Virus record (IMG/VR): IMGVR_UViG_2529293140_000002
Source: a virus
Taxonomy: Duplodnaviria > Heunggongvirae > Uroviricota > Caudoviricetes
Direction: 5' to 3' (one strand)
DNA length: 36,706 nucleotides
The translations under genes were made by a program, and so were the position numbers. This document shows positions 3,949 through 26,611 of the stretch, piece by piece. Numbering within the stretch: position 1 is the first letter of the stretch; the number at the start of each line of letters is the position of its first letter. The notes beneath the pieces were generated by a model. That model was not told the origin of the DNA. It ran no database searches and was given only the letters and a program-made list of their open reading frames with translations.

Positions 3949-4802
3949 GCACCATCCTGAAATGGGCGGGAAATAAAACTGCCATAATGTCCGAACTGAA
4001 AAAACATCTTCCTGCTGGCCCGCGACTGGTTGAACCTTTCGCGGGTTCCTGTGCTGTGATGATGGAGACGGATTATCCCAGCTATCTGGTTGCGGATATT
4101 AATCCTGATTTAATCAACCTCTATAAAAAGGTTGCCGCTGATTGTGAATCGTTTATATCTCGCGCCAGAGTTTTATTTGAGATCGCAAACAGGGAGGTGG
4201 CTTATTACAACATAAGGCAGGAGTTTAATTACTCAACTGAAATTACTGATTTCATGAAAGCGGTATATTTCCTGTATCTCAATCGTCACGGTTACCGTGG
4301 TTTATGTCGCTATAACAAGAGCGGGCATTTCAACATTCCCTACGGTAATTATAAAAATCCGTATTTCCCTGAAAAAGAAATTCGCGCATTTGCAGAAAAG
4401 GCCCAGCGAGCAACGTTTATCTGCGCCAGCTTTGATGAAACGCTGGCGATGTTGAAGGCGGGGGATGTGGTGTATTGCGATCCGCCGTATGACGGTACGT
4501 TTTCCGGCTATCACACTGACGGCTTCACTGAAGATGACCAGTATCACCTGGCATCTGTTCTTGAACATCGGTCATCAGAAGGACATCCGGTCATTGTTTC
4601 TAACAGTGACACATCCCTGATCCGTTCGCTGTATCGCAATTTTACTCACCACTACATCAAGGCAAAACGCAGCATCGGTGTGGCAGCTGGCGAGGGTAAA
4701 TCAGCAACAGAAATCATTGCTGTTTCCGGGCCGCGCTGCTGGGTGGGATTTGATTATTCGCGTGGCGTGGATAGTTCTGCCGTGTACGGAGTACGTGCAT
4801 GA
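3945..4802 (+). CDS. dam: DNA adenine methyltransferase (Dam family, N6-adenine MTase)
   Basis: ATG at 3945 with GGAGGT upstream; N-terminal SAM-binding region (LKWAGNK...[10 protein letters not shown]) and the DPPY catalytic motif (VYCDPPYDG); stop overlaps the gene A start (ATGA). Confidence 0.85.
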
Positions 4803-7213
4803 GTCATGCCGATATGAACAACTGCTGCGGCTTTAACGAAGCTGCCGCATCGTTCTCATGGAACAGCTCGAAAAAGGCCATTAACCCTTATCTGGACCCG
4901 GTGGAAGTTGCGCCGGTTTCTACGCTTTCAAACCTGATCACTCTGTACGCTGCCGATAACGAGCAGGAACAGCTGCGCCGTGAGGCGCTGAGTGATCAGG
5001 TCTGGGAGCGTTATTTCTTTAATGAATCCCGTGATCCTGTCCAGCGCGAAATGGAACAGGATAAGCTCATTAGTCGGGCAAAGCTGGCGCATGAGCAGCA
5101 GCGTTTTAATCCGGATATGGTCATTCTGGCGGACGTCAACGCCCAGCCTTCCCATATCAGCAAGCCGCTGATGCAACGTATTGAATACTTCAGCAGCCTG
5201 GGCAGGCCAAAGGCTTATTCCCGCTATTTACGTGAGACGATTAAGCCATGTCTGGAACGACTGGAGCATGTACGCGACAGTCAGCTATCTGCATCTTTTC
5301 GCTTTATGGCAAGCCATGAAGGGCTGGACGGCCTGCTGATCCTGCCTGAAATGAGTCAGGATCAGGTGAAACGCCTGTCCACCCTGGTAGCTGCGCATAT
5401 GAGTATGTGCCTTGATGCCGCTTGTGGCGATTTGTATGCCACCGATGACGTTAAGCCAGAAGAAATCCGCAATACATGGGAAAGGGTGGCAGCGGAAACC
5501 CTGCGTCTGGATGTCATCCCGCCTGCGTTTGAGCAACTCCGTCGGAAAAGAAACCGCCGTAAACCCGTGCCCTATGAACTCATTCCGGGTTCGCTGGCGC
5601 GTATGTTGTGCGCCGACTGGTGGTATCGGAAATTATGGAAGATGCGTTGCGAATGGCGGGAAGAGCAGTTGCGTGCTGTCTGCCTTGTCAGCAAAAAAGC
5701 ATCTCCCTATGTCAGCTATGAAGCCGTGTTGCATAAACGTGAGCAGCGCCGTAAGTCGCTGGAGTTTTTCCGTTCTCATGAACTGGTGAACGAAGACGGC
5801 GACACGCTAGACATGGAGGATGTGGTAAACGCCAGCAGCAGCAACCCTGCGCATCGCCGCAATGAGATGATGGCCTGTGTTAAAGGTCTGGAGCTTATCG
5901 CGGAAATGCGCGGTGACTGCGCCGTTTTCTACACCATCACCTGTCCGTCACGTTTCCATTCCACGCTAAATAACGGCAGGCCCAACCCGACCTGGACAAA
6001 TGCGACGGTAAGACAAAGCAGCGATTATCTGGTCGGTATGTTTGCTGCATTTCGTAAGGCGATGCACAAAGCCGGGTTGCGCTGGTATGGCGTGCGGGTG
6101 GCTGAGCCGCATCACGACGGCACAGTTCACTGGCACCTGTTGTGTTTCATGCGCAAAAAAGACCGCCGCGCCATTACAGCATTGTTGCGTAAGTTTGCTA
6201 TCCGTGAAGACCGCGAGGAGCTGGGCAATAACACGGGGCCGCGCTTTAAGTCTGAGCTGATTAACCCGCGCAAAGGAACGCCGACAAGCTACATAGCGAA
6301 ATACATCAGTAAGAACATTGACGGGCGTGGTCTGACTGGCGAGATCAGCAAGGAAACGGGTAAATCTCTGCGTGATAACGCTGAATACGTGAATGCCTGG
6401 GCGTCTTTGCATCGTGTTCAGCAATTCCGCTTCTTTGGCATTCCGGGGCGTCAGGCTTACCGTGAACTGCGATTGCTGGCTGGTCAGGCGGCAAGGCAAA
6501 AGGGGGACAAAAAAGCAGGTGCGCCGGTACTGGATAACCCGCGCCTTGATGCCATCCTGGCTGCTGCTGATGCTGGTTGTTTTGCCACCTACATCATGAA
6601 GCAGGGCGGCGTACTGGTTCCCCGTAAATATCACCTCATCAGAACCGCTTATGAAATCAACGAAGAGCCGACCGCCTATGGCGATCACGGCATTCGTATT
6701 TATGGCATCTGGTCACCCATTGCAGAGGGCAAGATCTGCACTCATGCAGTGAAGTGGAAAATGGTTCGTAAAGCCGTTGACGTTCAGGAGGCGGCAGCCG
6801 ACCAGGGCGCTTGCGCCCCTTGGACTCGTGGCAATAACTGTCCCCTTGCTGAAAATTTGAACCAACAGGAGAAAGATAAATCAGCTGATGGGGACACCAG
6901 AACGGACATTACCCGCATGGATGACAAGGAGTTGCACGATTACCTGCACAGTATGAGCAAAAAAGAGCGCCGGGAACTGGCTGCAAGGTTACGCCTGGTG
7001 AAACCGAAACGGCGTAAAGACTACAAACAGCGAATTACAGACCATCAGCGACTGCAGCTCGTCTATGAGCTGAAGTCCAGAGGATTTGATGGTAACGAGA
7101 AAGAGGTCGATTTACTCCTTCGCGGCGGCAGTATTCCGTCAGGAGCAGGCCTGCGTATCTTCTATCGGAACCAGCGTTTGCAGGAAGATGATAAGTGGCG
7201 GAACCTGTATTAA
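4799..7213 (+). CDS. A: Replication initiation protein A (P2 gpA-like rolling-circle endonuclease)
   Basis: 804-aa ORF; conserved blocks recognisable from P2 gpA ([45 protein letters not shown]...AYRELR). Confidence 0.9.
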
Positions 7214-7305
7214 TTACGCGGGTTAACAATTCGTGCTCTTAATAATACCAGGCATATCAGGCTGATGAACGTAAAAAAACGTTTTACATCAGTAATATTA
7301 TTATA

Positions 7306-7325
7306 TACTGTAAATATAAACAGTA
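7306..7325 (+). promoter_or_regulatory. LexA operator (SOS box) TACTGTAAATATAAACAGTA
   Basis: Perfect CTGT-N8-ACAG palindrome with AT-rich spacer matching the E. coli LexA box consensus; about 40 bp upstream of the 7367 ATG, which has an AGGAGG Shine-Dalgarno. Confidence 0.7.
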
Positions 7326-7366
7326 GTTATCTATACAGTATTGTTTGCGGTGTCATAGGAGGAAAG

Positions 7367-7555
7367 ATGCAGGACTATTTTTTGGAGTCTTTGAAGCTCC
7401 AGCGCATTGATTTTTTTCTTAAGCTTGTAGCGGCTAGTGAGTGTAGTGATGAAGAGAAGGGGCTGGCTCTGCAGTGGGTTTCTGAACTGACAGATGAACT
7501 CATGGCAAAAATCAGAACCCACGAATACAACCGCTCAATGGATGTCATCAGCTGA
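7367..7555 (+). CDS. Small SOS-regulated protein, possible Tum-like antirepressor N-terminal module
   Basis: ORF 7265-7555; internal ATG at 7367 lies just downstream of the LexA box with a strong Shine-Dalgarno; 62 aa; followed 10 bp later by the DinI-like gene. Confidence 0.5.
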   Translation: MQDYFLESLKLQRIDFFLKLVAASECSDEEKGLALQWVSELTDELMAKIRTHEYNRSMDVIS

Positions 7556-7565
7556 GGTGACTTTT

Positions 7566-7799
7566 ATGCGCATTGAAATAATGATCGATAAAGAGCAGAA
7601 GATTAGCCAGTCTACACTGGACGCCCTTGAATCCGAGCTTTACCGCAATCTGCGCCCTCTGTATCCCAAAACGGTAATCCGTATCCGTAAAGGTAGCTCT
7701 AACGGTGTGGAACTGACCGGACTGCAACCGGACGAAGAAAGAAAACAAGTGATGAAAATTATGCAGAAGGTGTGGGAAGACGACAGCTGGCTGCATTAA
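7566..7799 (+). CDS. DinI-family protein (Tum C-terminal-like)
   Basis: ATG at 7566 preceded by GAGGTGA; 77 aa beginning MRIEIMIDK with acidic C-terminus (WEDDSWL), matching the DinI fold pattern as I recall it (MRIEVTIAK...WESADDW). Confidence 0.7.
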   Translation: MRIEIMIDKEQKISQSTLDALESELYRNLRPLYPKTVIRIRKGSSNGVELTGLQPDEERKQVMKIMQKVWEDDSWLH

Positions 7800-8243
7800 G
7801 AAATGTTGCCCCCAGGAGGATTCATTCTAATGGGGGCTAGTTTGGGCAACGAGTGAAACGAGGCGTAAGGTGGGTAATCATTTTGATAAGTGATCGCCCA
7901 CTTTGTGCCAAAAGCGGACATCGCAGATATGACAATATGTTAGTCAACCGCGATTAGATCAGTCAGTTGGAGATGGGGGGAAGTTACAAAAACTTGTCGT
8001 CCGCCATCTCCGACTACGGGTATTCTTAACTGTACATGCTCTTTCAATCGATGATTTTTGAGTAAGTGACTAACCTATTGTTTTGATAGTAATTAAACGT
8101 ATAAACGTGCGGAGTTAATTTGAAAGTTATGTGTCTATGTTTGACAAGCAAAATTTTAAAGATTGGTTTTATCCACAGGTAATTTATGCTATTAATAGCC
8201 TCAAGCCCTGTAATTATTTTTATTTAAATGGATAAATTTGAAA

Positions 8244-10364
8244 ATGAGTACATATCATAATGATCAGCCAATACTAGGTGGTCAAAATGACCCCGATTTA
8301 TTAAACAGGCTCGATTTTGCAAATCACTTGGCAAATATTCTACTATTAAATCACAATGATGATTGCCTTACTGTATCTATAGAGGCAGAGTGGGGATATG
8401 GTAAAACGTCAGTGATAAATCTTATAAAAGGTGCTTTGAATGAAAAGGAGTTCTTACCAATAATAATAGAATATAATCCATGGCTGGCCGGTCAACCTGA
8501 ATCCTTGATTCAGGATTTTTTATTACAGTTCTCTTCACAACTAAATATTAAAGACAATTCAAAAGCTGCTTTGGAAGCTTCAAAAGAATTAATTGCATAC
8601 TCCAATCTCTTCAGTGTAGCAAAACTTATTCCAGGGACAGAACCTTGGGCATCTATCATAGAAAAAGTCCTCTCTAATTTTGGGAGTGCTACTAAAAAGA
8701 TTGCTGAATTAAAAAAACTGGATCTTTTAGGTAGAAAAAAACAAGTAGAGAAGGCAATAAAAAAAATAAAAAATCCTATTGTGGTAATAATTGATGATAT
8801 TGATCGATTGACTCCTGCAGAAACTTTTCAAGTTTTACGATTGGTTAAAGCAGTTGCAGATTTCTCAGGAACTTCTTTTTTACTTGCATTTGATCCTAAT
8901 TATTTGATTTCTGTGCTTGATAAAAATAATATCGTCAATTCTTCGGAGTATCTTAATAAAATTGTTCAACTTCGAGTCCCACTTCCTGTAATCTCAGAAA
9001 GGGGTATGAATGAACTTGCAAATGCAGAACTGGAAAAGATAGCTAATAAATCTTTAACTGACAGATTCGAAAGTGATCAAGAAAGACTAAGCTGGATTTA
9101 TCATAATTATTTTAAAAAACTAATTAAGAATCCGAGAGAGTTAAAAAGATTTTTTAACCATTTGAGATTCGTTTTAGAGCAAATTGAAGGGCAGGTATGT
9201 TTTTCTGATCTCTTTGCTTTATCTCTGGTCGCCACTAAATCGAGTTTGGTATACGAGCATATTAAAAGCACACCAGAGGCATATATAGGGAAGAGATTCA
9301 CTAATGATGGCCTTTTGATGGATAAACCTCAAGATATTGTGGATAGATTTAGTGATGAGCGAAATAAGAAACTGAGTAATTTTTCTGATCAAGAGCGTTC
9401 AGTGATGCAGGAACTCTTAGGAGATATTTTCCCACTTCTACAGTCAAGCGGGTATTCTCATTATGGGGTTTCTGATCCCGATACAGCAGGAAGGGTTTCT
9501 GCACCACAAAGGCTTCATATTGCGTTTCATTATAAAACTCCAGCAGGGTATATTTCTGATCATGATATTATCAGTTTCATTAATGGAGATGTCAAAAGAA
9601 ACGAATTTCTAAGAGATGTGCTCTCGCAAAATGCAGAAGAAAGATTTTTTGAAATGATGAATAATTATTCGAGTTATTGTAAGGATAATAGTTTTGAAAT
9701 ATTAACGTGTATTTATGATACTTTTCTGTTTTCTCAAGAATTGAAATCCTCATTGGAAAGAAACTATGGTTTTTTGACAAAAGATCTTTATAGAAGGATG
9801 AATTGGCTCACTAATAAGGTAATATCTGAAAGTGATGATAAATATGGGTTAATAAAGGGGGTTGTAGGTAGGCATGAGAATGCGCCACTTGGTGCAGACG
9901 TATTATGCCAAGCTCGTAAACAGATTCAAAATGGATGGAATGACAAAATATGGGTTAGTATTGAAGAATTGGCTGAACTTGAAGGTATCTTTCAACAGGT
10001 GGCTATTAAAGTTTTAAGTGATAAAATATATTTTGATTATCATCTTGAATCTCATATATTTTTCGAATTAAAGAGAGTTTCATCTCAATTTACATCAGAG
10101 TTTATTGCTTCTGTATTATCAAGTGATGGCCTGATTAGGATGTGTGAGATTATTGGTGAAACAGGTAGTGATTCAACAAATGGCCCTTATTTTAAGTTTG
10201 ATGAAATTTACTTCGGGGAAATACTTGATGTGAATGAACTTCGAAATAAAGCGAAAAATTTAGATTTTTCAATTTATCCCACACGCATTCAAGCTGTACT
10301 TAAGAGTATTCTGGATGGACAAAAATATTATTTGAGAGATGCAACTGTTGGTGAAGATTGGTAA
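8244..10364 (+). CDS. KAP-family P-loop NTPase
   Basis: About 706 aa from the ATG at 8244 (the track ORF starts at a TTG at 8238); Walker A WGYGKTS at 8391-8411 and Walker B hhhhDDIDR (IVVIIDDIDRL) at about 8781-8807, the characteristic KAP NTPase signatures; strongly AT-rich compared with the phage backbone. Confidence 0.8.
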   Translation: MSTYHNDQPILGGQNDPDLLNRLDFANHLANILLLNHNDDCLTVSIEAEWGYGKTSVINLIKGALNEKEFLPIIIEYNPWLAGQPESLIQDFLLQFSSQLNIKDNSKAALEASKELIAYSNLFSVAKLIPGTEPWASIIEKVLSNFGSATKKIAELKKLDLLGRKKQVEKAIKKIKNPIVVIIDDIDRLTPAETFQVLRLVKAVADFSGTSFLLAFDPNYLISVLDKNNIVNSSEYLNKIVQLRVPLPVISERGMNELANAELEKIANKSLTDRFESDQERLSWIYHNYFKKLIKNPRELKRFFNHLRFVLEQIEGQVCFSDLFALSLVATKSSLVYEHIKSTPEAYIGKRFTNDGLLMDKPQDIVDRFSDERNKKLSNFSDQERSVMQELLGDIFPLLQSSGYSHYGVSDPDTAGRVSAPQRLHIAFHYKTPAGYISDHDIISFINGDVKRNEFLRDVLSQNAEERFFEMMNNYSSYCKDNSFEILTCIYDTFLFSQELKSSLERNYGFLTKDLYRRMNWLTNKVISESDDKYGLIKGVVGRHENAPLGADVLCQARKQIQNGWNDKIWVSIEELAELEGIFQQVAIKVLSDKIYFDYHLESHIFFELKRVSSQFTSEFIASVLSSDGLIRMCEIIGETGSDSTNGPYFKFDEIYFGEILDVNELRNKAKNLDFSIYPTRIQAVLKSILDGQKYYLRDATVGEDW

Positions 10365-10956
10365 TACTTTTATAGGCATGCTTAGAGATGATGGAGTATC
10401 TTTTTCTCCCTTTTTGAGGAAGTGATTTCCAACTGGGCATGGATGCCACATCAAATGGACAGTTGTTGTCACCTGTCAGTTAGCTGCTATTTGTTTATAG
10501 CAGCTGAAAGCCCACTACATAGTTACACCAGAAGGAGTAACAATGTAGTGGATAGCTAAATTTGACCACCTTAACAGATATGTTAATTTCCCCCCTCGCT
10601 CACAGCGGACTTTCATCTTTGTAAACCCTTATAATTCGCTTTTCAGCGGTCATTCAGATACGGATTTACGCTTTCCTTGGCAGTGCATGACTATGACGCA
10701 TGAGATCGCATGATCGTTTGAGGATCGTTTTTGCTGAGGCCAGCCAGAACTGGCGTGCTTTTGCTTATGTCATGCAGGTGCATGAAAACCACTACATAAA
10801 GTGGGCAGGCGTGGCGGGGATACGAGCGCGCGCTAACTCTTGGCTTTGTTTCATAATCAAAAATGTGATCATTGAGATTATTCTTAATTTTATGTTTGTC
10901 TATGAAATATCATTTCGCTTAACATTGTTTGAGTTAGGACTACATGAGAATAAAGA

Positions 10957-11532
10957 ATGCTTTTACCCGTAAGTGTTACATCGTGTGGCTTGTATCACCC
11001 CTACTGGCATTTGGGAGAGCGCAACCCTCATAGCGATGAACTATCAAGGCAGATGATGGATTTTAAGGATGAAAATAATCGTAATCATCAAAGGGCTATT
11101 AACCGTTTTTCTCGATTAGCTATAGATAAGGTTGGGCGGTTAGTAATCAGAGGTGGCGGTGGGCGTTTTGTTGAGTCTCCTTTTTCGATAGCAGTCGTCC
11201 CATCTCACACTGAAGGCAGAATTTCACCGGCTTTGATTGAGGTCGCCGAGCGAATCGTAAATGTTCACCGTCGGGGCATTGTTGATTGCTGTTTGGAAAG
11301 AACACGCACTGTTCCTAGCGCACATCGTGAAGGAGGAGATCGCTCAATTACTGGTCACATGTCTAGTATCAGAGTTAGGGGTGGTAACCTCATGGGGCGA
11401 AATGTGTTACTACTAGATGATGTTAAAACAACAGGCGGTAGTTTGTCTGCGTGTTTTTATTTACTGGAGTCTGCAGGAGCTGGAGTTATAATGCCATTAG
11501 CTCTGCTAGAAACTGCAAACTATGAGGAGTAG
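10957..11532 (+). CDS. Phosphoribosyltransferase-domain protein (ComF-like PRTase); candidate toxin or effector
   Basis: 191-aa ORF; type I PRTase PRPP-binding signature VLLLDDVKTTGGSL at 11404-11442 plus upstream ComF-like blocks (SIAVVPSH, LERTRTVPSAHRE); N-terminus uncertain because a possibly frameshifted ORF 10700-10972 lies upstream. Confidence 0.7.
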   Translation: MLLPVSVTSCGLYHPYWHLGERNPHSDELSRQMMDFKDENNRNHQRAINRFSRLAIDKVGRLVIRGGGGRFVESPFSIAVVPSHTEGRISPALIEVAERIVNVHRRGIVDCCLERTRTVPSAHREGGDRSITGHMSSIRVRGGNLMGRNVLLLDDVKTTGGSLSACFYLLESAGAGVIMPLALLETANYEE

Positions 11533-12496
11533 CAAAGTGCACTCAGAAGAATTAAAAAATACACTTGGATTAGCTATTCAAATCGGGAAGCTAGCATCTG
11601 ATCAAAGTGTATTGAAATTCTTTGAGCTTATTGATTTTGATGTTATTCGTGATATACGCGACTTAACTGAGATGGTTAATAGCCACGGGTTTCTAAAAGA
11701 TAAAATATCTGAGACTGATTTTCTAATAGCGAATGCTGAATTGGAGAACCACCATGTTAATGGTGTGGAGCTAATACCATATGGGTCTGAATTCTATCCT
11801 CTTAGTTTAGCGTTTACTCCTAATCCACCATCAATTCTCTACATAAAAGGGGATAAAAGTATACTAAAAGAATTGCCGGGTGTCGCAATTGTAGGATCCC
11901 GTGATACTTCCCCTGCAGGGGAAGAAATAACGAGGCGAATCACTAATCAGATAGTGTCTGCTGGGTATATTGTTGTAAGTGGGTTAGCAATAGGCACTGA
12001 TGCGAATGCTCATAAGGCAACGTTACAAGCAAAAGGAAAAACCATTGCTGTCTTGGCGCATGGTCTTGAGGAGGCTAAGCCGAAGCAAAACAGTCGACTT
12101 GCTCAAGAGATTCTGGATAAAGGTGGTGCATGGATTTCTGAGTATCCTATGGGGCGACCGGCCCAGAAACAATCATTTGTACAAAGAAATCGGATACAAG
12201 TTGGATTATCTGCAGGTTCAATTTTAATCGAGGCTGCGTTAAATAGCGGAACGATAACTCAAGCTGAGTTTGCAAATAAGGCTAAAAGACCAGTGTTTGC
12301 GGTTGTACCTCACCTACCTAATAATCCGCTTAATCTTAATTGTGAGGGAACAGTTGATTTAGTTAAGAGCAACATGGCTAGAGCGTTAAAAACAAAACGG
12401 GATTATGATGATGTGATTATGATCATAAATGAGTCTCGGGAGTATTTGTTAGAGCTAAAATGGCCAGGGAAACAGAGTACATTAGACTTGATTTAA
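11522..12496 (+). CDS. DprA/Smf-like Rossmann-fold protein; candidate antitoxin or partner of the PRTase
   Basis: 324-aa ORF overlapping the PRTase stop (alternative GTG at 11537 after GAGGAG); DprA signature VAIVGSR...VVSGLAIGTDANAHKA...IAVLAHGL...SEYP...RNRI...LIEAALNSG...RPVFAV. Confidence 0.75.
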   Translation: MRSSKVHSEELKNTLGLAIQIGKLASDQSVLKFFELIDFDVIRDIRDLTEMVNSHGFLKDKISETDFLIANAELENHHVNGVELIPYGSEFYPLSLAFTPNPPSILYIKGDKSILKELPGVAIVGSRDTSPAGEEITRRITNQIVSAGYIVVSGLAIGTDANAHKATLQAKGKTIAVLAHGLEEAKPKQNSRLAQEILDKGGAWISEYPMGRPAQKQSFVQRNRIQVGLSAGSILIEAALNSGTITQAEFANKAKRPVFAVVPHLPNNPLNLNCEGTVDLVKSNMARALKTKRDYDDVIMIINESREYLLELKWPGKQSTLDLI

Positions 12497-12520
12497 AGCG
12501 CCTCTTTTAGAGGCACTTTG

Positions 12521-13546
12521 CTAAATTTGATATCTCTCGAATTTTATAATTTCTTCACCGCTCCAATGATTAAATTCTTTCATTCTTTTTTGTAATGGTA
12601 ATAATTCATTTTTCACAAATACCTTACTAGCTTTTTCTACATCCCCAAATCCCCCAACATTATTAGGCATTATCCCCATCATCTGTGGCGGAACGCGATG
12701 TGCTGCCATCATGTCATCCCGGCTCACGTTCTTGATATTTAGAAACTCATCCTTCGCCGCAACTTCTGACAAAGGGATGATCTGAAGGCCGTCCTTTTTG
12801 CCGTTAGGCGAGTACATAAACAGGTTGCGGAAGTTACCCGGACCTTTGGCACTTTTCATTGCATTGCGGAGGTTGTTCACGTCCTCCTGGTTCTGCGCAG
12901 CATCGGTCATGTACATGATGAAGCCTGCATGACTACCGTTAATGTAATACTTGCGGCGGAACAGCGTGGCGGACTCATTGAGCAGGGCGGACGGAATGGC
13001 AGAAAGATAGCTGGGCAGGCCGTAGATCTCCTGGTTAATGTCCGGTTCCATCAGATGAAAAATGCTGCCTTTCGTGAACTGATACGGCTGGGTTGTCATA
13101 CCGTATTGCACAAACCAGTAGGTATCCAGGTCTAACCCGCGTCGGGTGTATTTTGCCAGAGCAGGCTCAAGGGCGATAACTTCACCGAAGCGGTTCGTGC
13201 GTTTCTCCAGGTAGGCGTTACCAAATACCAGATAGTCCTGCACAAAACGTGAAAAAGCCTGCTGGCTGAGCAGCGGGTGAGGGATGTAGGTACTGGTCAG
13301 AATGTTGCATTTTACTGCAATTGGTGAGCTGTGATGCACGGCAGCGCGGAAGGTTCGTGCCAGTCCGTCAAAGCTGACGGGCGGCTCATACCAGCGGTCC
13401 ATCTGTACGCATTCCACATAGTCCAGCAGTTCACGGCGGTCCAGAACAGGAACGGGATCGCCAAAGCTGAATGCTTCGGCTGAAGTCTGGCTTTTATGCT
13501 TGAGCTGATTCGTCGCCGCAGCGCGGTTTTTCTTACTCTTTCCCAT
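12521..13546 (-). CDS. Q: Portal protein (P2 gpQ-like)
   Basis: ORF 12521-13549 minus; ATG at 13546-13544 overlapping the upstream terminase stop; size about 341 aa; conserved position and length for P2-family portal. Confidence 0.85.
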   Translation of the reverse strand: MGKSKKNRAAATNQLKHKSQTSAEAFSFGDPVPVLDRRELLDYVECVQMDRWYEPPVSFDGLARTFRAAVHHSSPIAVKCNILTSTYIPHPLLSQQAFSRFVQDYLVFGNAYLEKRTNRFGEVIALEPALAKYTRRGLDLDTYWFVQYGMTTQPYQFTKGSIFHLMEPDINQEIYGLPSYLSAIPSALLNESATLFRRKYYINGSHAGFIMYMTDAAQNQEDVNNLRNAMKSAKGPGNFRNLFMYSPNGKKDGLQIIPLSEVAAKDEFLNIKNVSRDDMMAAHRVPPQMMGIMPNNVGGFGDVEKASKVFVKNELLPLQKRMKEFNHWSGEEIIKFERYQI

Positions 13547-15312
13547 CAAAAAATCTCCACAATATTGCTGGTATTGGCGGATTCGCCCTGCAGCGGTTCG
13601 TTAAACAGTGCGTGCATCGTTGCCCAGGCCAGATCGGCGTGGCTGGCTTCTTCGCTGCGGCTGGCTTCATAGGTCGGGCGGTTGCCGCTGGCGGTGGTGG
13701 CGCGACGGATTGCCATGAATGACTGCGCAATGTCGGTGTGCCCGGCGTCAAACTCCAGACGGCGGTGGCTGATAATGTCGTAGGCCTTGAGTACCAGGGC
13801 GTTTTTAACATTGGGGTTGTAGACAAACTCCCGGACGGCAGGAAAGAACGCTTTCACGTTCTCATAAACCCCGTGACCAACGCCGGTTGAGTCGATACCG
13901 ATATAGGTCACGTTGTACTGTTCGGTGAGTTTTTTGATGGCGTCAGCCTGGGCGCGGAAGTCCATCCCGCGCCACTGGTGACGCTCAAGAATGCGGAACT
14001 TACCACCCGGCACGGCTGGCGGAGCCACCACCACGCATCCGGCACTGTCGCCGTTCTGCGTACCTTTTGCCGGGTCATAACCGATCCACACTTCGCGCCA
14101 GCCAAACGGGCGCAGGGCCAGTGCATGAAAGTCGGTCCAGACTTCCCAGCTGTCCACCATGCACGCCTGCAGTTCGCTGAGCGGGAACACGGACGCGAGA
14201 TCGTCCACGAACTCGCACATCAGCAGGTTCTGGTATTCGTCCGGGCTGTACTCCATGCGTAGCTGGTCGAGGTCGAACAGGTTACAGCCGCCGCGCACCG
14301 CATCTTCCACGGTGACTATCTGGCGGTATTGCCCGTCTGCGCACAGCAGGCCGGGGGCCAAATTGCTGTGGGACAGGTCGATGTCCACCTTGTCAGCTTT
14401 GTTGCGTCCACGGTTGAACAGCGCACCGGACCAGAACGGATAAGCACTGTGGGTCAGGCTGGATGGCGTGGAAAAATAGGTTTGTCGCCATTTTTTGTGA
14501 ATAGCCATCCCGGAAGCCACTTTGCGCAGCTCCTGGAATTTCGGTATCCAGAAATATTCATCCAGATACAGGTTGCCGTGATAACTCTGGGCCGTGCGGG
14601 CATTGGTGCCGAGGAAGTAAAGCGTGGCTCCGTTAGGAAGCACCATCGGATCGCCTTTTAGCTCCACCTCGACTTCTTTGGCGAAGTCGATGATGTATTG
14701 TTTAAAGACGTGGGCCTGAGCCTTACTGGCAGAAAGGAAAATCTGGTTACGTCCGGTAAGCAGGGCGTCAATCAGGGCTTCACGGGCAAAATAGAAGGTC
14801 GCGCCGATCTGGCGTGACTTCAGCAGGTTGCGGATGCGGTTGGTTTTTCCGGCTTCCCACCAGTGGCGCTGGTAGTTGAACATGGAGGAATGGAAGATTT
14901 CTTCCAGCTTCTCAATCTGCTCATCGGTGAAAACATTCTTTTCCGGCTGACGGCGTGGGCCTTTATTGCGGTTGGCGACGTTAGGGTTTAAGTCGGCTTC
15001 GTTGCCGCCATTGTTAAACTTGCCGATCCGCGCGTGGCGCTCAGACTGGCGCGCCAGCAGGTCAATCTCTTTGAAATCTTTCCCTTCTTTGTGCTCCTTC
15101 ATAATGAGCTGGCAGTAGCGTGCGGCGGTGGTGAGCTGCATCTGATCCAGCGGCCCATAGTCACCCCACTTGTCGCGTTTTTTCCAGCTGTGAACGGTTG
15201 CAACTTTCTCGCCCAGCATTTCAGCAATGCGGGCTACGCGGTATCCCTGAAAGTACAGCAGCATGGCCTGCCGACGGGGATCGAGATCTGCGGGTGTCAG
15301 TGTGGTGTTCAT
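13546..15312 (-). CDS. P: Terminase large subunit, ATPase (P2 gpP-like)
   Basis: 588-aa ORF, start ATG at 15312-15310 (MNTTLTPADL); divergent from the scaffold gene O as in P2. Confidence 0.9.
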   Translation of the reverse strand: MNTTLTPADLDPRRQAMLLYFQGYRVARIAEMLGEKVATVHSWKKRDKWGDYGPLDQMQLTTAARYCQLIMKEHKEGKDFKEIDLLARQSERHARIGKFNNGGNEADLNPNVANRNKGPRRQPEKNVFTDEQIEKLEEIFHSSMFNYQRHWWEAGKTNRIRNLLKSRQIGATFYFAREALIDALLTGRNQIFLSASKAQAHVFKQYIIDFAKEVEVELKGDPMVLPNGATLYFLGTNARTAQSYHGNLYLDEYFWIPKFQELRKVASGMAIHKKWRQTYFSTPSSLTHSAYPFWSGALFNRGRNKADKVDIDLSHSNLAPGLLCADGQYRQIVTVEDAVRGGCNLFDLDQLRMEYSPDEYQNLLMCEFVDDLASVFPLSELQACMVDSWEVWTDFHALALRPFGWREVWIGYDPAKGTQNGDSAGCVVVAPPAVPGGKFRILERHQWRGMDFRAQADAIKKLTEQYNVTYIGIDSTGVGHGVYENVKAFFPAVREFVYNPNVKNALVLKAYDIISHRRLEFDAGHTDIAQSFMAIRRATTASGNRPTYEASRSEEASHADLAWATMHALFNEPLQGESANTSNIVEIF

Positions 15313-15358
15313 GGCACAAACCTACAGCCTTGAATGAAGGCTTTCCCCGCCTGCGGTT

Positions 15359-15376
15359 TGTGTGGTTGTCGGTACA
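15359..15376. promoter_or_regulatory. Ogr-type late-activator site TGT-N12-ACA (P/O divergent late promoter region)
   Basis: TGTGTGGTTGTCGGTACA in the 142-bp P-O intergenic region; nearly identical to the site upstream of the sheath gene (26612-26629). Confidence 0.5.
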
Positions 15377-15454
15377 AATACCGCGCATTGTTTCACTGCC
15401 CCCATCACCGCAACCATAAGGCTCCAGTAAGTTTTTTCTAACGGAGCACGGCTC

Positions 15455-16288
15455 ATGACAGTGAAAGCAAAGCGTTTTCGCATCGGGGTGGAAGGTGCCA
15501 CTACCGACGGACGCGAAATCCAGCGTGAATGGCTGGAACAGATGGCAGCCAGCTACAATCCGGCGGTGTACACCGCGCTGATTAACCTTGAGCACATCAA
15601 GTCTTATCTTCCGGACAGCACCTTTAACCGCTACGGCAAGGTGACGGCGCTGTTTGCTGAAGAAATCACGGAAGGTCCGCTGGCAGGCAAGATGGCACTG
15701 TATGCCGACGTTGAGCCAACGGAGTCCTTGGTGGAACTGGTGAAAAAAGGCCAGAAATTATTCACCTCTATGGAAGTCAGCCCGAAGTTCGCTGATACGG
15801 GCAAAGCCTACCTGGTTGGCCTGGCTGCCACTGATGATCCTGCCAGTCTGGGTACGGAAATGCTGACATTCAGCGCCAGTGCAGCCCATAACCCGCTGGC
15901 AAACCGCAAGCAGAATCCCGCCAATCTCTTTACCGCCGCAGAGGAAACGGTGATCGAACTGGAAGAAGTCCAGGACGACAAACCGTCCCTGTTTGCCCGC
16001 GTCACGGCGCTGTTTACCAAAAAAGAGCAGTCCGATGACGCCCGGTTCTCTGATGTGCATAAGGCCGTGGAGCTGGTCGCCACTGAGCAGCAGAACCTGA
16101 GCGCACGCACCGAAAAATCCCTGTCTGAGCAGGAAGAACGTCTGTCTGAGCTGGAGACTGCCCTGCAGGCACAGCAGACCGCCTTTAACGAACTGGTGAA
16201 TAAGCTGAGTCATGAAGACAGCCGACAGGACTACCGCCAGCGTGCAACAGGCGGTAACGCCCCCGCTGATACTCTGACCAATTGCTGA
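15455..16288 (+). CDS. O: Capsid scaffolding protein (P2 gpO-like)
   Basis: 277-aa ORF directly upstream of the major capsid gene; acidic, coiled-coil-rich C-terminal half; GGAG upstream. Confidence 0.85.
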   Translation: MTVKAKRFRIGVEGATTDGREIQREWLEQMAASYNPAVYTALINLEHIKSYLPDSTFNRYGKVTALFAEEITEGPLAGKMALYADVEPTESLVELVKKGQKLFTSMEVSPKFADTGKAYLVGLAATDDPASLGTEMLTFSASAAHNPLANRKQNPANLFTAAEETVIELEEVQDDKPSLFARVTALFTKKEQSDDARFSDVHKAVELVATEQQNLSARTEKSLSEQEERLSELETALQAQQTAFNELVNKLSHEDSRQDYRQRATGGNAPADTLTNC

Positions 16289-16303
16289 TGGAGCACAAAC
16301 CTG

Positions 16304-17362
16304 ATGAAGAAGAATACCCGCTTTGCTTTTAACGCTTACCTGCAGCAACTGGCACGTCTGAACGGTGTGGCAGTTGAAGAACTGTCCAGCAAGTTCACTG
16401 TAGAGCCGTCTGTGCAGCAGACGCTGGAAGACCAGATCCAGCAGTCCGCCGCTTTCCTGACGCTGATTAACGTCACGCCAGTGACTGAGCAGTCCGGTCA
16501 GCTGCTGGGGCTGGGTGTTGGCAGCACCATTGCCGGAACCACTGACACCACCGCGAAAGAGCGTGAACCTGTCGATCCGACGCTGATGGTCGATGTGGAA
16601 TACAAATGCGAGCAGACCAACTTTGACACGGTGCTGACCTACGCGAAGCTGGACCTGTGGGCGAAGTTTCAGGATTTCCAGGTGCGTATCCGTGACGCCA
16701 TCGTGAAACGTCAGGCACTGGACCGCATCATGATCGGCTTTAACGGCGTGAAGCGTGCGAAAACCTCCAACCGTAGTGAAAACCCGCTGCTGCAGGATGT
16801 GAACAAAGGCTGGCTGCAGAAAATCCGTGAGGATGCACCGGATCACGTCATGGGCAGCACCACCACGGGCGGTGAAACCACTCCGGGTGCGGTGAAAGTC
16901 GGGAAAGGTGGCGAATATGCCAACCTGGACGCTGTGGTGATGGATGCCGTCAATGAGCTTATCGACGTGGTTTACCAGGACGATGACGATCTGGTGGTGA
17001 TTTGCGGTCGTGAACTGTTGTCTGACAAGTATTTCCCGCTGGTCAACAAAGAGCAGGAAAACAGTGAAAAACTGGCTGCCGATATGATCATCAGCCAGAA
17101 ACGCATGGGTGGCCTGCAGGCCGTGCGTGCGCCGTTCTTCCCGCCGAATGCGCTGCTGGTCACCCGTCTGGATAACCTGTCCATCTACTGGCAGGAAGAC
17201 ACCCGCCGCCGTTCAGTTATCGACAACCCGAAACGTGACCGGATTGAAAACTTTGAATCCGTTAATGAAGCCTATGTGGTTGAGGACTACCGCTGCGCCG
17301 CACTGGTGGAAAACATCCAGATTGGTGATTTCAGCGCCGCCGCAGCCGAAACCGGAGCGTAA
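16304..17362 (+). CDS. N: Major capsid protein (P2 gpN-like)
   Basis: 352-aa ORF in conserved order O-N-M; size matches P2 N. Confidence 0.9.
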   Translation: MKKNTRFAFNAYLQQLARLNGVAVEELSSKFTVEPSVQQTLEDQIQQSAAFLTLINVTPVTEQSGQLLGLGVGSTIAGTTDTTAKEREPVDPTLMVDVEYKCEQTNFDTVLTYAKLDLWAKFQDFQVRIRDAIVKRQALDRIMIGFNGVKRAKTSNRSENPLLQDVNKGWLQKIREDAPDHVMGSTTTGGETTPGAVKVGKGGEYANLDAVVMDAVNELIDVVYQDDDDLVVICGRELLSDKYFPLVNKEQENSEKLAADMIISQKRMGGLQAVRAPFFPPNALLVTRLDNLSIYWQEDTRRRSVIDNPKRDRIENFESVNEAYVVEDYRCAALVENIQIGDFSAAAAETGA

Positions 17363-17365
17363 TCC

Positions 17366-18016
17366 ATGAGCCTGAGTCCCGCACGGCAGCATCGCCTGCG
17401 CGTTCAGGCTGAACAGGCCGCCCGCGAGGGCGGCAGTGTTCGCCACGCATCGGGCTATGACCTGATGCTGCTGCAACTGGCGGAAGACCGCCGCCGTCTC
17501 AAGGGCGTTCAGTCCACGGTCAAAAAAGCGGAAATCAAGGTGGAGCTGCTGCCGAAGTACGCCGCCTGGGCAGAGGGTGTCCTGGCTGCCGGAGGCGCTC
17601 AACAGGATGACGTGCTGATGTACGTGATGCTGTGGCGCATTGATGCCGGAGATTATGCCGGGGCGCTGGAGATCGGGCGTCATGCCCTGCGTCATGGCTG
17701 GGTGATGCCGCTGGGTAACCGCAACGTGCAGACCGTGCTGGCAGAGGAAATGGCAGACGCCGCGCAGAGCGCAATGCTTGCCGCCACCGGCTTTGATGCC
17801 GATCTGTTGTTGCAGACGCTGGAGCTGACAGACGGTCTGGATATGCCGGACCAGTCACGGGCGCGTCTGCATAAAGCGATTGGCGCTGTCCTGAGTGAAA
17901 GCAATCCGGCTTCCGCCCTTAATCATCTCAACCATGCGTTACAGCTTGATCCCCGCTGTGGCGTGAAAAAAGACAAACAGCAGCTGGAGCGCAGACTGCG
18001 CAATGACAGCCGCTGA
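17366..18016 (+). CDS. M: Terminase small subunit / endonuclease (P2 gpM-like)
   Basis: 216-aa ORF immediately after N; conserved gene order. Confidence 0.8.
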   Translation: MSLSPARQHRLRVQAEQAAREGGSVRHASGYDLMLLQLAEDRRRLKGVQSTVKKAEIKVELLPKYAAWAEGVLAAGGAQQDDVLMYVMLWRIDAGDYAGALEIGRHALRHGWVMPLGNRNVQTVLAEEMADAAQSAMLAATGFDADLLLQTLELTDGLDMPDQSRARLHKAIGAVLSESNPASALNHLNHALQLDPRCGVKKDKQQLERRLRNDSR

Positions 18017-18111
18017 CAGAACGTGCCCCCGCGCACGGGCGGCACGGGGTGGCGAAAGGCACTGCCACATCAAAACCCCGTCCACCGCCCTCTATTTCAG
18101 GAGAAAGCAGC

Positions 18112-18576
18112 ATGAAGTTTGTTGCGCCAGAACAGGCACCGGAACAGGCGGAAATCATCAGAAATACGCCGTTCTGGCCTGATGTGGACCTGTCGGAGTT
18201 TCGCAGTGTCATGCGCACTGACGGCACGGTGACGCAGCCGCGTTTAAAGCAGGTTGCGCTGTCGGCAATTTCGGAGGTCAACGCAGAGCTGTATGAGTTT
18301 CGCAGACGTCAGCAGATGCTGGGGTATGTGTCGCTGGCTGAGGTTCCGGCGGAACAGTTGGACGGCAAAAGTGAGCGCATTCAGCACTATTTCAACGCGG
18401 TTTACTGCTGGGCACGCGCCATGCTCAACGAACGATACCAGGACTATGACGCCACGGCATCCGGTGTGAAGCGAGGCGAGGAACTGGCGGAATCCAGCGG
18501 TGATTTGTGGCGTGACGCCCGCTGGGCTATCAGCCGGGTGCAGGATGCGCCGCACTGCACAGTGGAGCTTATCTGA
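18112..18576 (+). CDS. L: Head completion/stabilisation protein (P2 gpL-like)
   Basis: ORF 18049-18576; ATG at 18112 preceded by AGGAGAAAG; stop overlaps the X start. Confidence 0.8.
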   Translation: MKFVAPEQAPEQAEIIRNTPFWPDVDLSEFRSVMRTDGTVTQPRLKQVALSAISEVNAELYEFRRRQQMLGYVSLAEVPAEQLDGKSERIQHYFNAVYCWARAMLNERYQDYDATASGVKRGEELAESSGDLWRDARWAISRVQDAPHCTVELI

Positions 18577-18779
18577 TGAAAGTGCGTGCGCATCAGTATG
18601 ACACGGTGGACGCGCTTTGCTGGCGTCATTACGGGCGCACGCAGGGTGTCACGGAGCAGGTACTGAAGGCAAATCCGGGGCTTGCCGAATATGGCCCCTT
18701 TTTACCTCACGGGCTGCAGGTGGAGCTGCCGGACATTCCGACCACCACCACCGTGCAGACCGTCCAGCTATGGGACTGA
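18576..18779 (+). CDS. X: Tail protein X (P2 gpX-like)
   Basis: 67-aa ORF, same length as P2 X, in conserved position before the lysis cassette. Confidence 0.8.
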   Translation: MKVRAHQYDTVDALCWRHYGRTQGVTEQVLKANPGLAEYGPFLPHGLQVELPDIPTTTTVQTVQLWD

Positions 18780-18782
18780 ATT

Positions 18783-18998
18783 ATGACGCTTGAGCGAATC
18801 AGCGCCTTTATCACGTACTGCATCGCCGTTGTGCTGGCCTGGCTGGGCGATTTGTCCATCAAGGATGCCTCAACGCTGGGCGGCCTGATGATTGGTGTGC
18901 TGATGCTGGCTATCAACTGGTACTACAAACACAAAGCCTACCAGCTTCTGCGCGACGGGCAGATCTCGCGGGAGGACTATGAATCCATCAATCGTTAA
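18783..18998 (+). CDS. Y: Holin (P2 gpY-like)
   Basis: 71-aa ORF with two hydrophobic segments and a charged C-terminus; immediately upstream of and overlapping the endolysin gene. Confidence 0.75.
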   Translation: MTLERISAFITYCIAVVLAWLGDLSIKDASTLGGLMIGVLMLAINWYYKHKAYQLLRDGQISREDYESINR

Positions 18999-19491
18999 AC
19001 GCTGCCTTGTCGGGGCCGTGCTGGCTATTGCTGCCACGCTGCCGGGGTTTCAGCAGCTTCACACCTCCGTGGAGGGGCTGAAACTGATTGCCGATTACGA
19101 AGGCTGTCGTCTGCAGCCGTATCAGTGCAGCGCGGGCGTCTGGACCGACGGCATTGGTAACACGTCAGGCGTCATTCCCGGCAAAACCATTACGGAACGA
19201 CAGGCAGCAGAAGGACTGATTTCCAACGTGCTGCGTGTGGAGCGGGCGCTGGAAAGGTGTGTGAAACAACAGCCGCCGCAGAAGGTATATGACGCTGCGG
19301 TGTCGTTTGCCTTCAACGTGGGAACGGGCAATGCCTGCAATTCCACGCTGGTGAAATTACTCAATCAGCGGCGCTGGGCGGATGCGTGCCGACAGTTGCC
19401 GCGCTGGGTGTATGTGAAAGGTGTGTTTAATCAGGGGCTGGATAACCGCCGTGCGCGGGAGATGGCCTGGTGTTTACAGGGAGCAAACTGA
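18979..19491 (+). CDS. K: Endolysin, lysozyme family (P2 gpK-like)
   Basis: 170-aa ORF with GGGAGGA Shine-Dalgarno; hydrophobic N-terminal segment followed by a lysozyme-like domain (DYEGCRLQPYQCSAGVWTDGIGNT). Confidence 0.85.
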   Translation: MNPSIVKRCLVGAVLAIAATLPGFQQLHTSVEGLKLIADYEGCRLQPYQCSAGVWTDGIGNTSGVIPGKTITERQAAEGLISNVLRVERALERCVKQQPPQKVYDAAVSFAFNVGTGNACNSTLVKLLNQRRWADACRQLPRWVYVKGVFNQGLDNRRAREMAWCLQGAN

Positions 19492-19492
19492 A

Positions 19493-19870
19493 ATGAAAAA
19501 GAAATTAATCAGCGGGCTGTTTCTGATGTTATGGATGGCGCTGTTAATCGCAGCAATGGTGTATCCCCAGGGGATTTTTCCGGTACTGGCAGCGTCCGGC
19601 GTTTGGGTAGCCTGTTTACTGATATGGGCGGTAATTCCGGTAGCACTGGCTGCGTTAATTAAGAATGGCCCGCTCTGGCAGGAGTTGAGGGCATCTTTGC
19701 TGAAGACAATTACCCGAAAAGAAAACGTATTTATCAGCTGGGTGATGCGATTGCTGATTGTCGTAAGTCTCGCCTGGACGGGGTGGGCTATTACCCTGGT
19801 CTTTTATCTACTGACCGTTATTGCCTTCTGGATCACCCGTAATCAGATGGCGCAACAGGTATCAGCATGA
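19493..19870 (+). CDS. lysA: Lysis regulatory membrane protein (P2 LysA-like)
   Basis: ATG at 19493 (MKKKLISGLF...); about 125 aa with four predicted transmembrane segments; follows the endolysin. Confidence 0.7.
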   Translation: MKKKLISGLFLMLWMALLIAAMVYPQGIFPVLAASGVWVACLLIWAVIPVALAALIKNGPLWQELRASLLKTITRKENVFISWVMRLLIVVSLAWTGWAITLVFYLLTVIAFWITRNQMAQQVSA

Positions 19871-20295
19871 ACCGGTTGCTGCTGGTTGTGCTGGCGTTAT
19901 TACTGGCGGCGCTGGGCTGGCAGACGTGGCGGCTGGCTGATGCCAGCCAGACCATCAGCACGCAGGCAGACGAGCTGCAGAGCAAAAGCCAGGCACTGGC
20001 AAAGAGCAATAGCCAGCTTATCAGCCTGTCCATTCTGACTGAAACCAATAACCGGGAGCAGGCGCGGCTCTATGCCGAAGCAGAACAGACCAGTGTACTG
20101 CTGAGACAACGACAACACCGGATTGAGGAACTGAAACGTGAGAACGAGGATTTACGCCGCTGGGCTGATACACCTTTGCCTGCTGACATTATCCGGCTGC
20201 GGGAACGCCCCACACTCACCGGAGGTGCAGATTACCGTCAGTGGTTGTCCGCGAGTGACGCCGTGTCGGCTGGGACAGGCAGCGCCGCGCACTAA
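19867..20295 (+). CDS. lysB: Rz-like spanin inner-membrane component (P2 LysB-like)
   Basis: 142-aa ORF with an N-terminal transmembrane anchor and coiled-coil periplasmic region; ATGA overlap with lysA. Confidence 0.7.
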   Translation: MNRLLLVVLALLLAALGWQTWRLADASQTISTQADELQSKSQALAKSNSQLISLSILTETNNREQARLYAEAEQTSVLLRQRQHRIEELKRENEDLRRWADTPLPADIIRLRERPTLTGGADYRQWLSASDAVSAGTGSAAH

Positions 20296-20428
20296 CGGTG
20301 GCCTGAACGCGTTGCTGGATGAAACGGAGGCCGCCTGGGCGGTCTGTGCAGACAAAGTGGACATGATTATTGCGTGTCAGGAGCGAAACAGTGAACAAAC
20401 CACAATCCCTGCGCCACGCCCTCAATAA
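20138..20428 (+). CDS. lysC: Rz1-like spanin outer-membrane lipoprotein (P2 LysC-like), embedded in +1 frame
   Basis: 96-aa ORF (GTG start) overlapping the lysB 3' end; lipobox LTLSGC after a short signal sequence; proline-rich. Confidence 0.55.
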   Translation: MRTRIYAAGLIHLCLLTLSGCGNAPHSPEVQITVSGCPRVTPCRLGQAAPRTNGGLNALLDETEAAWAVCADKVDMIIACQERNSEQTTIPAPRPQ

Positions 20429-21261: not shown

Positions 21262-21265
21262 TCTT

Positions 21266-21283
21266 TGTATCAGCACTGATACA
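21266..21283. promoter_or_regulatory. Ogr-type late-activator site TGT-N12-ACA (V operon late promoter)
   Basis: Perfect palindrome TGTATCAGCACTGATACA, 5 bp after the S stop and about 50 bp upstream of the V start. Confidence 0.55.
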
Positions 21284-21329
21284 AGTTGCAGCACTGCCGC
21301 CTTTCTTCCCCTGATGGCAACCTTTCCCT

Positions 21330-25840: not shown

Positions 25841-25860
25841 CGTTTAGCAAGATGTCGGAA

Positions 25861-25895
25861 GCCGCAGCACGTCGGATGCAAGGACGTGCTGCGGC
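25861..25895. terminator. Perfect 13-bp stem hairpin (GCCGCAGCACGTC / GACGTGCTGCGGC), possible terminator or structured site
   Basis: Stem 25861-25873 and 25883-25895 with 9-nt loop, 20 bp after the G stop; no clear U-tract on either strand, so intrinsic-terminator function is uncertain. Confidence 0.3.
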
Positions 25896-26563: not shown

Positions 26564-26611
26564 ATCAGCTTTATTTTGATTATCCCTGAAAGCAGACAAA
26601 TACCGTCATTT

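Follow-up and report, generated by a model that had tools for sequence, protein, structure and literature searches.

Two cargo modules around a predicted cos site between genes A and Q of a 186/P2-like Escherichia coli prophage

What is encoded by the AT-rich DNA that lies between the replication gene A and the portal gene Q of a prophage of Escherichia coli, and what might it do for the host? The question is raised by the virus record IMGVR_UViG_2529293140_000002 of IMG/VR, a stretch of 36,706 nucleotides hereafter called the window, in which a previous sequence-only reading singled out positions 7800-12520 as one island of horizontally acquired cargo, most plausibly for anti-phage defence, on a P2 backbone. 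Our analysis indicates that the locus is very probably a cos-proximal accessory hotspot of a 186/P2-like prophage in which two acquired AT-rich cargo modules flank the cos site. The module on the A side (slot L) carries a gene for a KAP-family P-loop NTPase, and that on the Q side (slot R) carries the genes for a phosphoribosyltransferase (PRTase) and a DprA-like protein. The interpretation of this cargo as acquired and probably defensive is well supported by homology and genomic context, namely by matches to PifA, ShosT and ShosA, by sister prophages with defence cargo at the same place and by the coincidence of the locus with the hotspot described by Rousset et al. (2022; PMC9122126). The locus is an already catalogued instance of a known phenomenon, with cargo from known families or variants of them; the present analysis adds that the cargo occupies two slots around cos, that one boundary falls inside Q and that annotation of the PRTase gene is missing. 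The earlier reading had overlooked that the PRTase/DprA pair corresponds to a system type already named, ShosTA, and that the locus was already catalogued.

The AT-richness that first drew attention to the region was readily verified in sliding windows. The GC content of 7800-12520 is 0.377, versus 0.555 for the backbone (13500-33500), in which windows of 500 bp have a mean of 0.556, a standard deviation of 0.033 and a minimum of 0.434; every island window of the same size lies at or below 0.452. By part, the GC content is 0.334 in the KAP coding sequence, 0.341 in slot L and 0.408 in the PRTase/DprA module of slot R, and the third codon positions (GC3) of the KAP, PRTase and DprA-like genes have values of 0.24, 0.35 and 0.31, versus 0.57-0.70 for A, Q and P. 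All three cargo open reading frames (ORFs) are intact and none is a phage core gene.

Anatomy of the interval between A and Q

The features on which the argument depends are listed here with their window coordinates.

4799-7213, plus strand: replication gene A, the left flank (Pfam Phage_GPA, 2e-127; 94-99% identical to its counterparts in D7 and E2348/69)
7306-7325: LexA-box-like palindrome (pattern TACTGT-N8-ACAGTA)
7367-7555, plus strand: gene for a hypothetical protein of 62 aa (phrog_698, 3.6e-38)
7566-7799, plus strand: DinI-like gene (Pfam DinI, 2e-22; phrog_189)
7919-10596, plus strand: variable module of slot L, made up of the KAP gene and AT-rich flanking DNA belonging to it (homology breakpoints)
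8244-10364, plus strand: KAP-family P-loop NTPase, 706 aa (Pfam PF07693, 2.1e-46)
10512-10551, plus strand: stem-loop 3' of the KAP gene (18-nt arms; folding energy)
10597-10835, unstranded: conserved block of 239 bp with the predicted cos site (common to the window, D7 and E2348/69)
10808-10826: predicted cohesive-end site of 19 nt, inside that block
10836-12539, plus strand: variable module of slot R, on the Q side of cos, lying before the final codons of Q
10957-11532, plus strand: PRTase-only, ShosT-like putative toxin, 191 aa (PADLOC ShosT, 3.6e-14)
11522-12496, plus strand: DprA-like, ShosA-like putative antitoxin, 324 aa (PF02481, 1.4e-60; PADLOC ShosA, 2.8e-70)
12499-12514, unstranded: hairpin between the stop codons of the DprA-like gene and Q (folding energy)
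12521-13549, minus strand: portal gene Q, the right flank (Pfam Phage_portal)
13546-15312: terminase gene P, following Q

Pairwise comparison with the D7 prophage shows shared DNA from 4799 to 10835, resuming at 12540, whereas the DNA shared with the E2348/69 prophage extends from 5200 to 7918 and resumes at 10597. These breakpoints divide the variable DNA into two segments, 7919-10596 and 10836-12539, which are parted by a block of 239 bp that is common to the window, D7 and E2348/69 even though the DNA on both sides of it differs. The supposed single island consequently resolves into two cargo slots around cos, and its limits need adjustment as well: 7919-12539 is indeed variable outside the cos block, whereas 7800-7918 still belongs to the conserved backbone. 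What had been considered a long non-coding spacer between the KAP and PRTase genes, of 592 bp, in fact holds the conserved block. Moreover, the position 13546 to which the minus-strand start of Q had been assigned is where the P gene begins, Q itself occupying 12521-13549.

By sequence comparison, the 239-bp block contains the cos packaging site of the phage, which we recognized via a core of 13 nt combined with alignment to the annotated ends of P2 and 186. This core, GGCGTGGCGGGGA at 10808-10820, is identical to bases 1-13 of the cohesive end annotated in phage 186 and has one mismatch to that of P2; the surrounding 60 bp match up column for column with the cosR/cosL junction annotated in P2. 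The core occurs once in the window (0.01 expected), and 10 of the fetched P2-like, 186 and P4-like loci have it at the corresponding place; Klebsiella phage 4LV2017 has no exact match to it, and a search with the P2 cos 19-mer, allowing up to three mismatches, gave no match. A hairpin just left of cos (10789-10804) repeats the CCACTACAT motif of the stem-loop at 10512-10551. In some phage records the equivalent block is annotated as a 'hypothetical protein', and an ORF of 90 aa that spans cos here and runs into the PRTase start (10700-10972) is probably spurious, having a weak match to Amidohydro_2 (0.0019) and no RefSeq annotation.

The position between homologues of gene A and portal gene Q, adjoining cos, and the variable content on a conserved backbone are those of the gpA-gpQ hotspot of P2-like phages, for which 1,650 arrangements in 18,150 loci have been documented (Rousset et al. 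2022). A re-analysis of 1,511 P2-like prophages has since stressed rapid modular swapping (Moura de Sousa et al. 2026 preprint, 10.64898/2026.02.27.708500). Our locus shares with that hotspot its position, the rapid exchange of cargo and the presence, often, of more than one system per locus; these papers deal with one hotspot, whereas here there are two independently assorting slots parted by the cos block. In P2 itself, the accessory exclusion genes old and tin lie between A and cos and thus in the position of slot L, but their proteins are unrelated to the cargo of the window, and in P2 and 186 the slot between cos and Q holds only the terminators tQ and tW. These are annotated at the same relative place as the hairpin at 12499-12514 (-12.9 kcal/mol, z = -2.96), which is likely to be a bidirectional terminator in the position of P2 tQ. 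By its CI, CII, Dam and LexA-boxed DinI/tum-like genes the backbone is 186-like, not P2 proper as proposed earlier.

Upstream of slot L, the genes for the 62-aa protein and the DinI-like protein form an operon that is present in all the prophages compared. It is preceded, 40 bp upstream, by a perfect LexA-box-like palindrome (TACTGTAAATATAAACAGTA, 7306-7325), a pattern that occurs once in the window with 0.05 expected, and in this respect it is like the tum operon of 186, which is under SOS control. A hairpin that follows DinI (approximately 7808-7837; -19.5 kcal/mol, z = -2.2) is without a T-run, so that SOS-induced read-through into the KAP gene is conceivable. In the packaged linear genome the two modules come to lie at opposite extreme ends, a terminal position that could affect the timing of expression of both systems after injection.

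The cargo genes and their families

The protein encoded in slot L clearly belongs to the KAP family, its match to Pfam PF07693 scoring 159 bits versus a cut-off of 20. It also matches the PADLOC models for PifA (6.7e-65, 218 bits) and PDC-S20, and BLASTP aligns it with PifA of the F plasmid at 26% identity over residues 43-360. The Walker A residues G51-G53-K54-T55 and the Walker B residues D184-D185 are invariant in 22 homologues. No transmembrane segment was found (maximum 19-residue hydropathy 1.48), and the protein is predicted to be soluble. Its C-terminal 266 aa define a rare region, matched by 40 cluster representatives among 1.84 billion proteins, and the full-length matches to this region always constitute the C-terminus of proteins of about 700 aa.

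Homologues of 700-713 aa with about 70% identity are present in Vibrio, Shewanella, Aeromonas and Serratia, among others, and down to 69% identity the family keeps its length and catalytic motifs across genera. In these bacteria the gene is solitary, surrounded by housekeeping genes or carried on a plasmid-like contig. Neither its neighbours nor its flanks are conserved across genera, which suggests that only the ORF travels. In Klebsiella oxytoca the gene resides, again on its own, in a P2-like A-Q hotspot, while other P2-like prophages of E. coli and Salmonella have a paralogue, 75% identical, in the slot between D and ogr; the defence gene thus appears to move among the slots of P2-like genomes. 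The D-ogr junction of the window (33543-33599) measures only 57 bp. The stem-loop situated 150 nt downstream of the KAP stop codon (10512-10551) has 18-nt arms that are 89% complementary, with a folding energy of -23.9 kcal/mol and z = -5.85 versus shuffled sequences. It is part of the KAP module, being present in D7 and absent from E2348/69, and is possibly a terminator or an RNA stabilizer.

Comparison with characterized KAP proteins reveals partial likeness in each case. PifA, which excludes T7, is similarly a single-protein KAP P-loop NTPase of about 700-740 aa, but its C-terminal half is unrelated and its gene in F has pifC directly upstream. The P4-borne 'Reve', a single-gene KAP plus AAA_22 system validated against Drexlerviridae (Moura de Sousa et al. 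2026 preprint), resembles our protein at the level of domains: both are solitary KAP genes on a mobile element, with PF07693 and PF13401 and with ORC (origin recognition complex) ATPase as the top Foldseek type. KAP NTPases from Enterococcus and the gut are experimentally validated defences (PMC12632615); the Enterococcus EF_KAP has two N-terminal transmembrane helices, the protein considered here none. In Table S5B of Rousset et al. (2022) the same KAP protein is system 117, listed as 'KAP_NTPase/NB-ARC' and 'NLR-like protein' with 26 occurrences; our own comparison with STAND/NLR proteins yielded only weak fold matches from a model of mediocre confidence.

The two genes of slot R are co-oriented and overlap by 11 nt, the start of the DprA-like gene lying over the PRTase stop. 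The second gene is the easier to classify, its product scoring 204 bits with PF02481 and 235 bits with PADLOC ShosA, with 36% identity to the tested ShosA over the Rossmann/DprA core and with the ShosA structures 9vzo and 8zva matched at 1.7e-29 in the PDB. As to the PRTase, its family of 189-193 aa is conserved over the full length, including the N-terminal 30 residues or so, at 40-89% identity in Enterobacterales and Shewanella. The conserved elements comprise GDRS, H134 and the phosphoribosyl pyrophosphate (PRPP) loop LLLDDVKTTGGS (DD-x-T-x-G-x-S), in which D155 is invariant and D154 is present in at least 90% of the sequences. Pfam gives a weak match to the PRPP loop only, and the fold is backed by structure prediction. 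The AlphaFold model has a predicted local distance difference test (pLDDT) of 90.4, and its best matches among solved structures are ShosT 8zvc and 8zvd (E ~3e-5), followed by ComF of Helicobacter pylori. D154 and D155 align with D331 and D332 of ShosT, the mutation of which abolishes toxicity, while the pyrophosphatase (PPase) mutant R56A loses little of it (Pu 2025; PMC11961720). A single-sequence search of PDB sequences with the PRTase gave no match (none to the ShosT structures at E < 0.01), and a search with the family profile found the generic PRPP loop only, in which ShosT did not outscore housekeeping PRTases; it is by fold comparison and by the PADLOC hidden Markov model (HMM) that the PRTase is linked to ShosT.

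On these grounds we assign the pair to a ShosTA-type toxin-antitoxin variant with a putative PRTase-only toxin, the small loss of toxicity in R56A making such a toxin plausible and suggesting that the PPase domain may be non-essential. The ShosTA systems tested previously derive from E. coli KTE181 and APEC (avian pathogenic E. coli) O1, with ShosT of 424 aa and ShosA of 327 aa (Millman 2022; Rousset 2022). Like them, the pair is a two-gene operon of PRTase and DprA-like proteins in a P2-like hotspot and keeps the acidic pair of the PRPP loop. It differs in the length of the toxin (191 versus 424 aa), in the N- and C-terminal regions of ShosA, which do not align, and in gene order and slot, since here the pair lies on the Q side of cos. 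According to the supplementary table of Millman et al. (2022), the insert cloned for KTE181 ShosTA includes the P2 cos 19-mer in reverse-complement form (GTGCTTTCCCCGCCTCGCC), which suggests that the tested ShosTA also comes from a cos-adjacent, P2-like hotspot. The pair is kept together in a P2-like prophage of Pectobacterium, in the slot between cos and Q, in a P4-like satellite of Hafnia beside cos and in a genomic island of Shiga toxin-producing E. coli (STEC). For the STEC copy, which is 76% identical, the NCBI Prokaryotic Genome Annotation Pipeline (PGAP) calls a shorter PRTase of 160 aa, and PHROG 7188 starts at residue 34; as residues 1-33 are conserved throughout the family, the form of 191 aa is favoured.

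Distribution and independent exchange of the modules

Of 5,426 complete E. coli genomes surveyed, 18 have the KAP module (identity >=99%), 23 have the PRTase/DprA module (identity >=95%) and 5 have both; 1,269 match the flanks, only 5 of which possess the whole locus. A conserved backbone with a variable insert, as proposed earlier, is thus confirmed, and the possibility that the three genes are core genes of related prophages is dismissed. Phage records reach at most 56% coverage of the A-to-P interval, since the flanks alone match. The locus of 5.4 kb is 100% identical to the chromosomes of E. coli BE311, F41, K99S and EC24.26 and 99.7% identical to that of NCTC9041. Over these 5.4 kb, the sole difference between BE311 and the window is an extra T at 10415 (T5 versus T4), which lies 3' of the KAP gene in non-coding flanking DNA.

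The contents of the two slots vary in different combinations. When KAP occupies slot L, slot R holds the PRTase/DprA pair, a PDC-S06 ATPase or a RES-family NAD+ phosphorylase; the ATPase, of 778 aa and matching the PADLOC candidate PDC-S06, is found in D7 and A12, and the phosphorylase in K56-43-un. When the pair occupies slot R, slot L holds either KAP or a small hypothetical gene, and the E2348/69 prophage lacks the KAP module in slot L while sharing its slot R cargo with the window. Related phages carry in slot R the retron St85 or a HEPN/Hypoth_Ymh protein. At least six alternative cargoes have been seen at the locus. From these sequence comparisons the modules appear to swap independently via recombination in the conserved flanks, namely the tail of DinI, the 239-bp cos block and the 3' end of Q. 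The C-terminal 20 residues or so of Q (window 12521-12600) are the same in the window as in E2348/69, the two having their slot R cargo in common, and differ in D7, K56-43-un, 813R9, 4LV2017 and P2. The last codons of Q therefore co-vary with the cargo, which places the right recombination boundary inside Q, at the 3' end of an essential gene.

The same arrangement can be recognized in Table S5A of Rousset et al. (2022), which lists WP_001154434 with WP_000109153 (KAP), WP_001324531 (DprA) and WP_001217580 (DinI), some records including the PRTase as WP_001324530. A DprA+PRTase system from the gpA-gpQ hotspot was validated in that study. The KAP protein and the pair with a short PRTase were not found among the systems tested by Rousset et al. 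(2022) or Moura de Sousa et al. (2026). We consider the locus a textbook case of P2/186-like prophages as swappable carriers of bacterial immunity, and both the soluble KAP NTPase with its rare C-terminal domain and the PRTase-only ShosT variant are good candidates for work at the bench. Since RefSeq omits the PRTase gene, surveys using annotated proteins will miss the pair.

Possible action of the cargo and alternative explanations

By analogy with their characterized relatives, we infer that the present alleles act in defence and how they might be triggered. The layout runs from gene A through the LexA-controlled hyp/DinI operon to slot L, cos, slot R and portal Q. The KAP protein of slot L would act alone, its NTPase module probably constituting an ATP-dependent switch and its family-specific, all-alpha C-terminal half probably sensing a phage component; once activated, the protein would stop the infection, most likely at the cell's cost, as in the case of F-plasmid PifA. 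This scheme is derived by analogy with PifA and the validated KAP NTPase defences. For slot R, regarded as a minimal ShosTA-type pair of toxin-antitoxin type IV, the mechanism is carried over from characterized ShosTA (Pu 2025, PMC11961720; Yang 2026, PMC12961424) and applied conditionally to the present variant. The PRTase would bind PRPP through its DD...TxGxS loop and poison nucleotide (purine) and DNA metabolism, while the DprA-like protein would bind single-stranded DNA (ssDNA) and RecA and offset the damage while leaving the toxin itself alone; on infection the toxin would be released and the infection thereby aborted. Possible triggers are host shut-off, depleting an unstable antitoxin, or phage intermediates of ssDNA and single-stranded DNA-binding protein (SSB), diverting it.

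Several observations weigh against this interpretation. The KAP protein appears PifA-like in its ATPase half only and is not a PifA orthologue: its match to the PADLOC model covers only profile positions 2-456 of 720, BLASTP against PifA beyond residues 43-360 found no match in the C-terminal half, and genuine F-plasmid PifA scores 963 bits over the full length of the same model. No pifC lies upstream of the KAP gene, the preceding 444 bp being without any ORF of at least 42 aa, and Pfam recognizes no effector domain in the protein. The structure model is mediocre (pLDDT 67.5), its C-terminal all-alpha part being better, and Foldseek returned weak matches to ORC/Cdc6, RdrA and Apaf-1 with TM-scores of 0.15-0.22. 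The KAP gene, furthermore, can decay, to judge from disrupted or split copies elsewhere: in E. coli SCU-176, C21 and CT29 it is interrupted by the insertion sequence (IS) IS1, annotated as two pieces or followed by IS903B. As to the pair, the match of the PRTase to PADLOC ShosT is partial and modest (3.6e-14, 51 bits), its sequence similarity to ShosT is limited to 44 residues of the PRPP loop, and it is without the N-terminal, HAD-like pyrophosphatase domain of tested ShosT. PGAP calls no PRTase gene in the RefSeq versions of BE311 or E2348/69, the protein being found in older records as WP_001324530; the conservation of the family nevertheless argues that the ORF is real. Finally, a sigma-70 promoter scan of either module found none convincing (20 sites versus 16.8 in shuffled sequence).

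Could the cargo then serve purposes other than defence? The pair might mainly be an addiction module that stabilizes the prophage by post-segregational killing, with KAP fulfilling another role in lysogenic conversion and defence being absent or incidental. ShosTA is a true toxin-antitoxin, first found as such, with an intrinsically unstable antitoxin, and about one quarter of P2-like hotspots carry plasmid-partition-like genes (Rousset et al. 2022), so that maintenance functions do occur at the locus. Yet the tested ShosTA homologues reduce the plating of T7 by up to 10^6-fold (Rousset et al. 2022, among other sources), the same slots of sister prophages hold retrons, HEPN proteins and PDC-S06, and an integrated prophage has small need for segregational stabilization; we therefore deem this alternative unlikely. 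A role of the pair in ComF/DprA-type DNA processing, in which its task would be the loading of RecA onto ssDNA, either phage-derived or incoming, in recombination or repair and it would not be a toxin-antitoxin, is suggested by the third-best Foldseek match of the PRTase, H. pylori ComF, by the NCBIfam comF match (1e-5 over residues 28-183), by the name 'ComF family protein' of a Kluyvera homologue and by the similarity of the DprA-like protein to true DprA (3maj, 2.2e-31), which is nearly as strong as that to ShosA. This we find most improbable. Both proteins score below the respective cut-offs (25.5 versus 233.55 bits for comF TIGR00201; 186.4 versus 191.15 bits for the dprA equivalog TIGR00732 and 168.6 versus 495 bits for PRK10736), and the ComF zinc finger must be missing, for the PRTase has one cysteine in its first 100 residues. 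In addition, the best fold match of the PRTase is ShosT, the pair moves among P2-like defence hotspots, a P4-like satellite and a genomic island, and E. coli has its own dprA/smf.

That the island is neutral or decaying DNA, hitch-hiking with no current function, would accord with its foreign composition, the damaged KAP copies just mentioned and the failure of PGAP to call the PRTase gene. It is nonetheless very hard to reconcile with three intact ORFs, with modules that are 99-100% identical in unrelated strains and with lengths and catalytic motifs kept across genera down to identities of 40% (PRTase) and 69% (KAP); the preprint by Moura de Sousa et al. (2026) also reports that defence pseudogenes are rare in P2 and P4 hotspots. 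Returning to defence, one may extend the argument to propose that KAP represents a new kind of single-protein immune sensor, that the pair forms a minimal ShosTA lineage and that the genome-end positions are relevant to the timing of expression, a tentative proposition of which we are rather doubtful. If such a minimal lineage were real, the PPase domain would be dispensable, and the acceptor substrate or the trigger might differ.

Two other candidates for the nature of the variable DNA were rejected: a retron-type or other known non-coding RNA in the spacers, because the Rfam scan of 7200-12600 returned nothing (best chance match E = 0.95), and a transposon-like cassette, because neither module is bounded by terminal repeats, whether inverted or direct. 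The remainder of the window is a complete 186-like prophage, with integrase, CI, CII and Dam methylase, then D and ogr and, beyond them, ybjL and ybjM of the host. At its right end (34090-36416) the window consists of host DNA, encoding a ybjL-like Asp-Al_Ex/TrkA_C permease together with ybjM, which implies that the prophage ends shortly after ogr (33600-33851).

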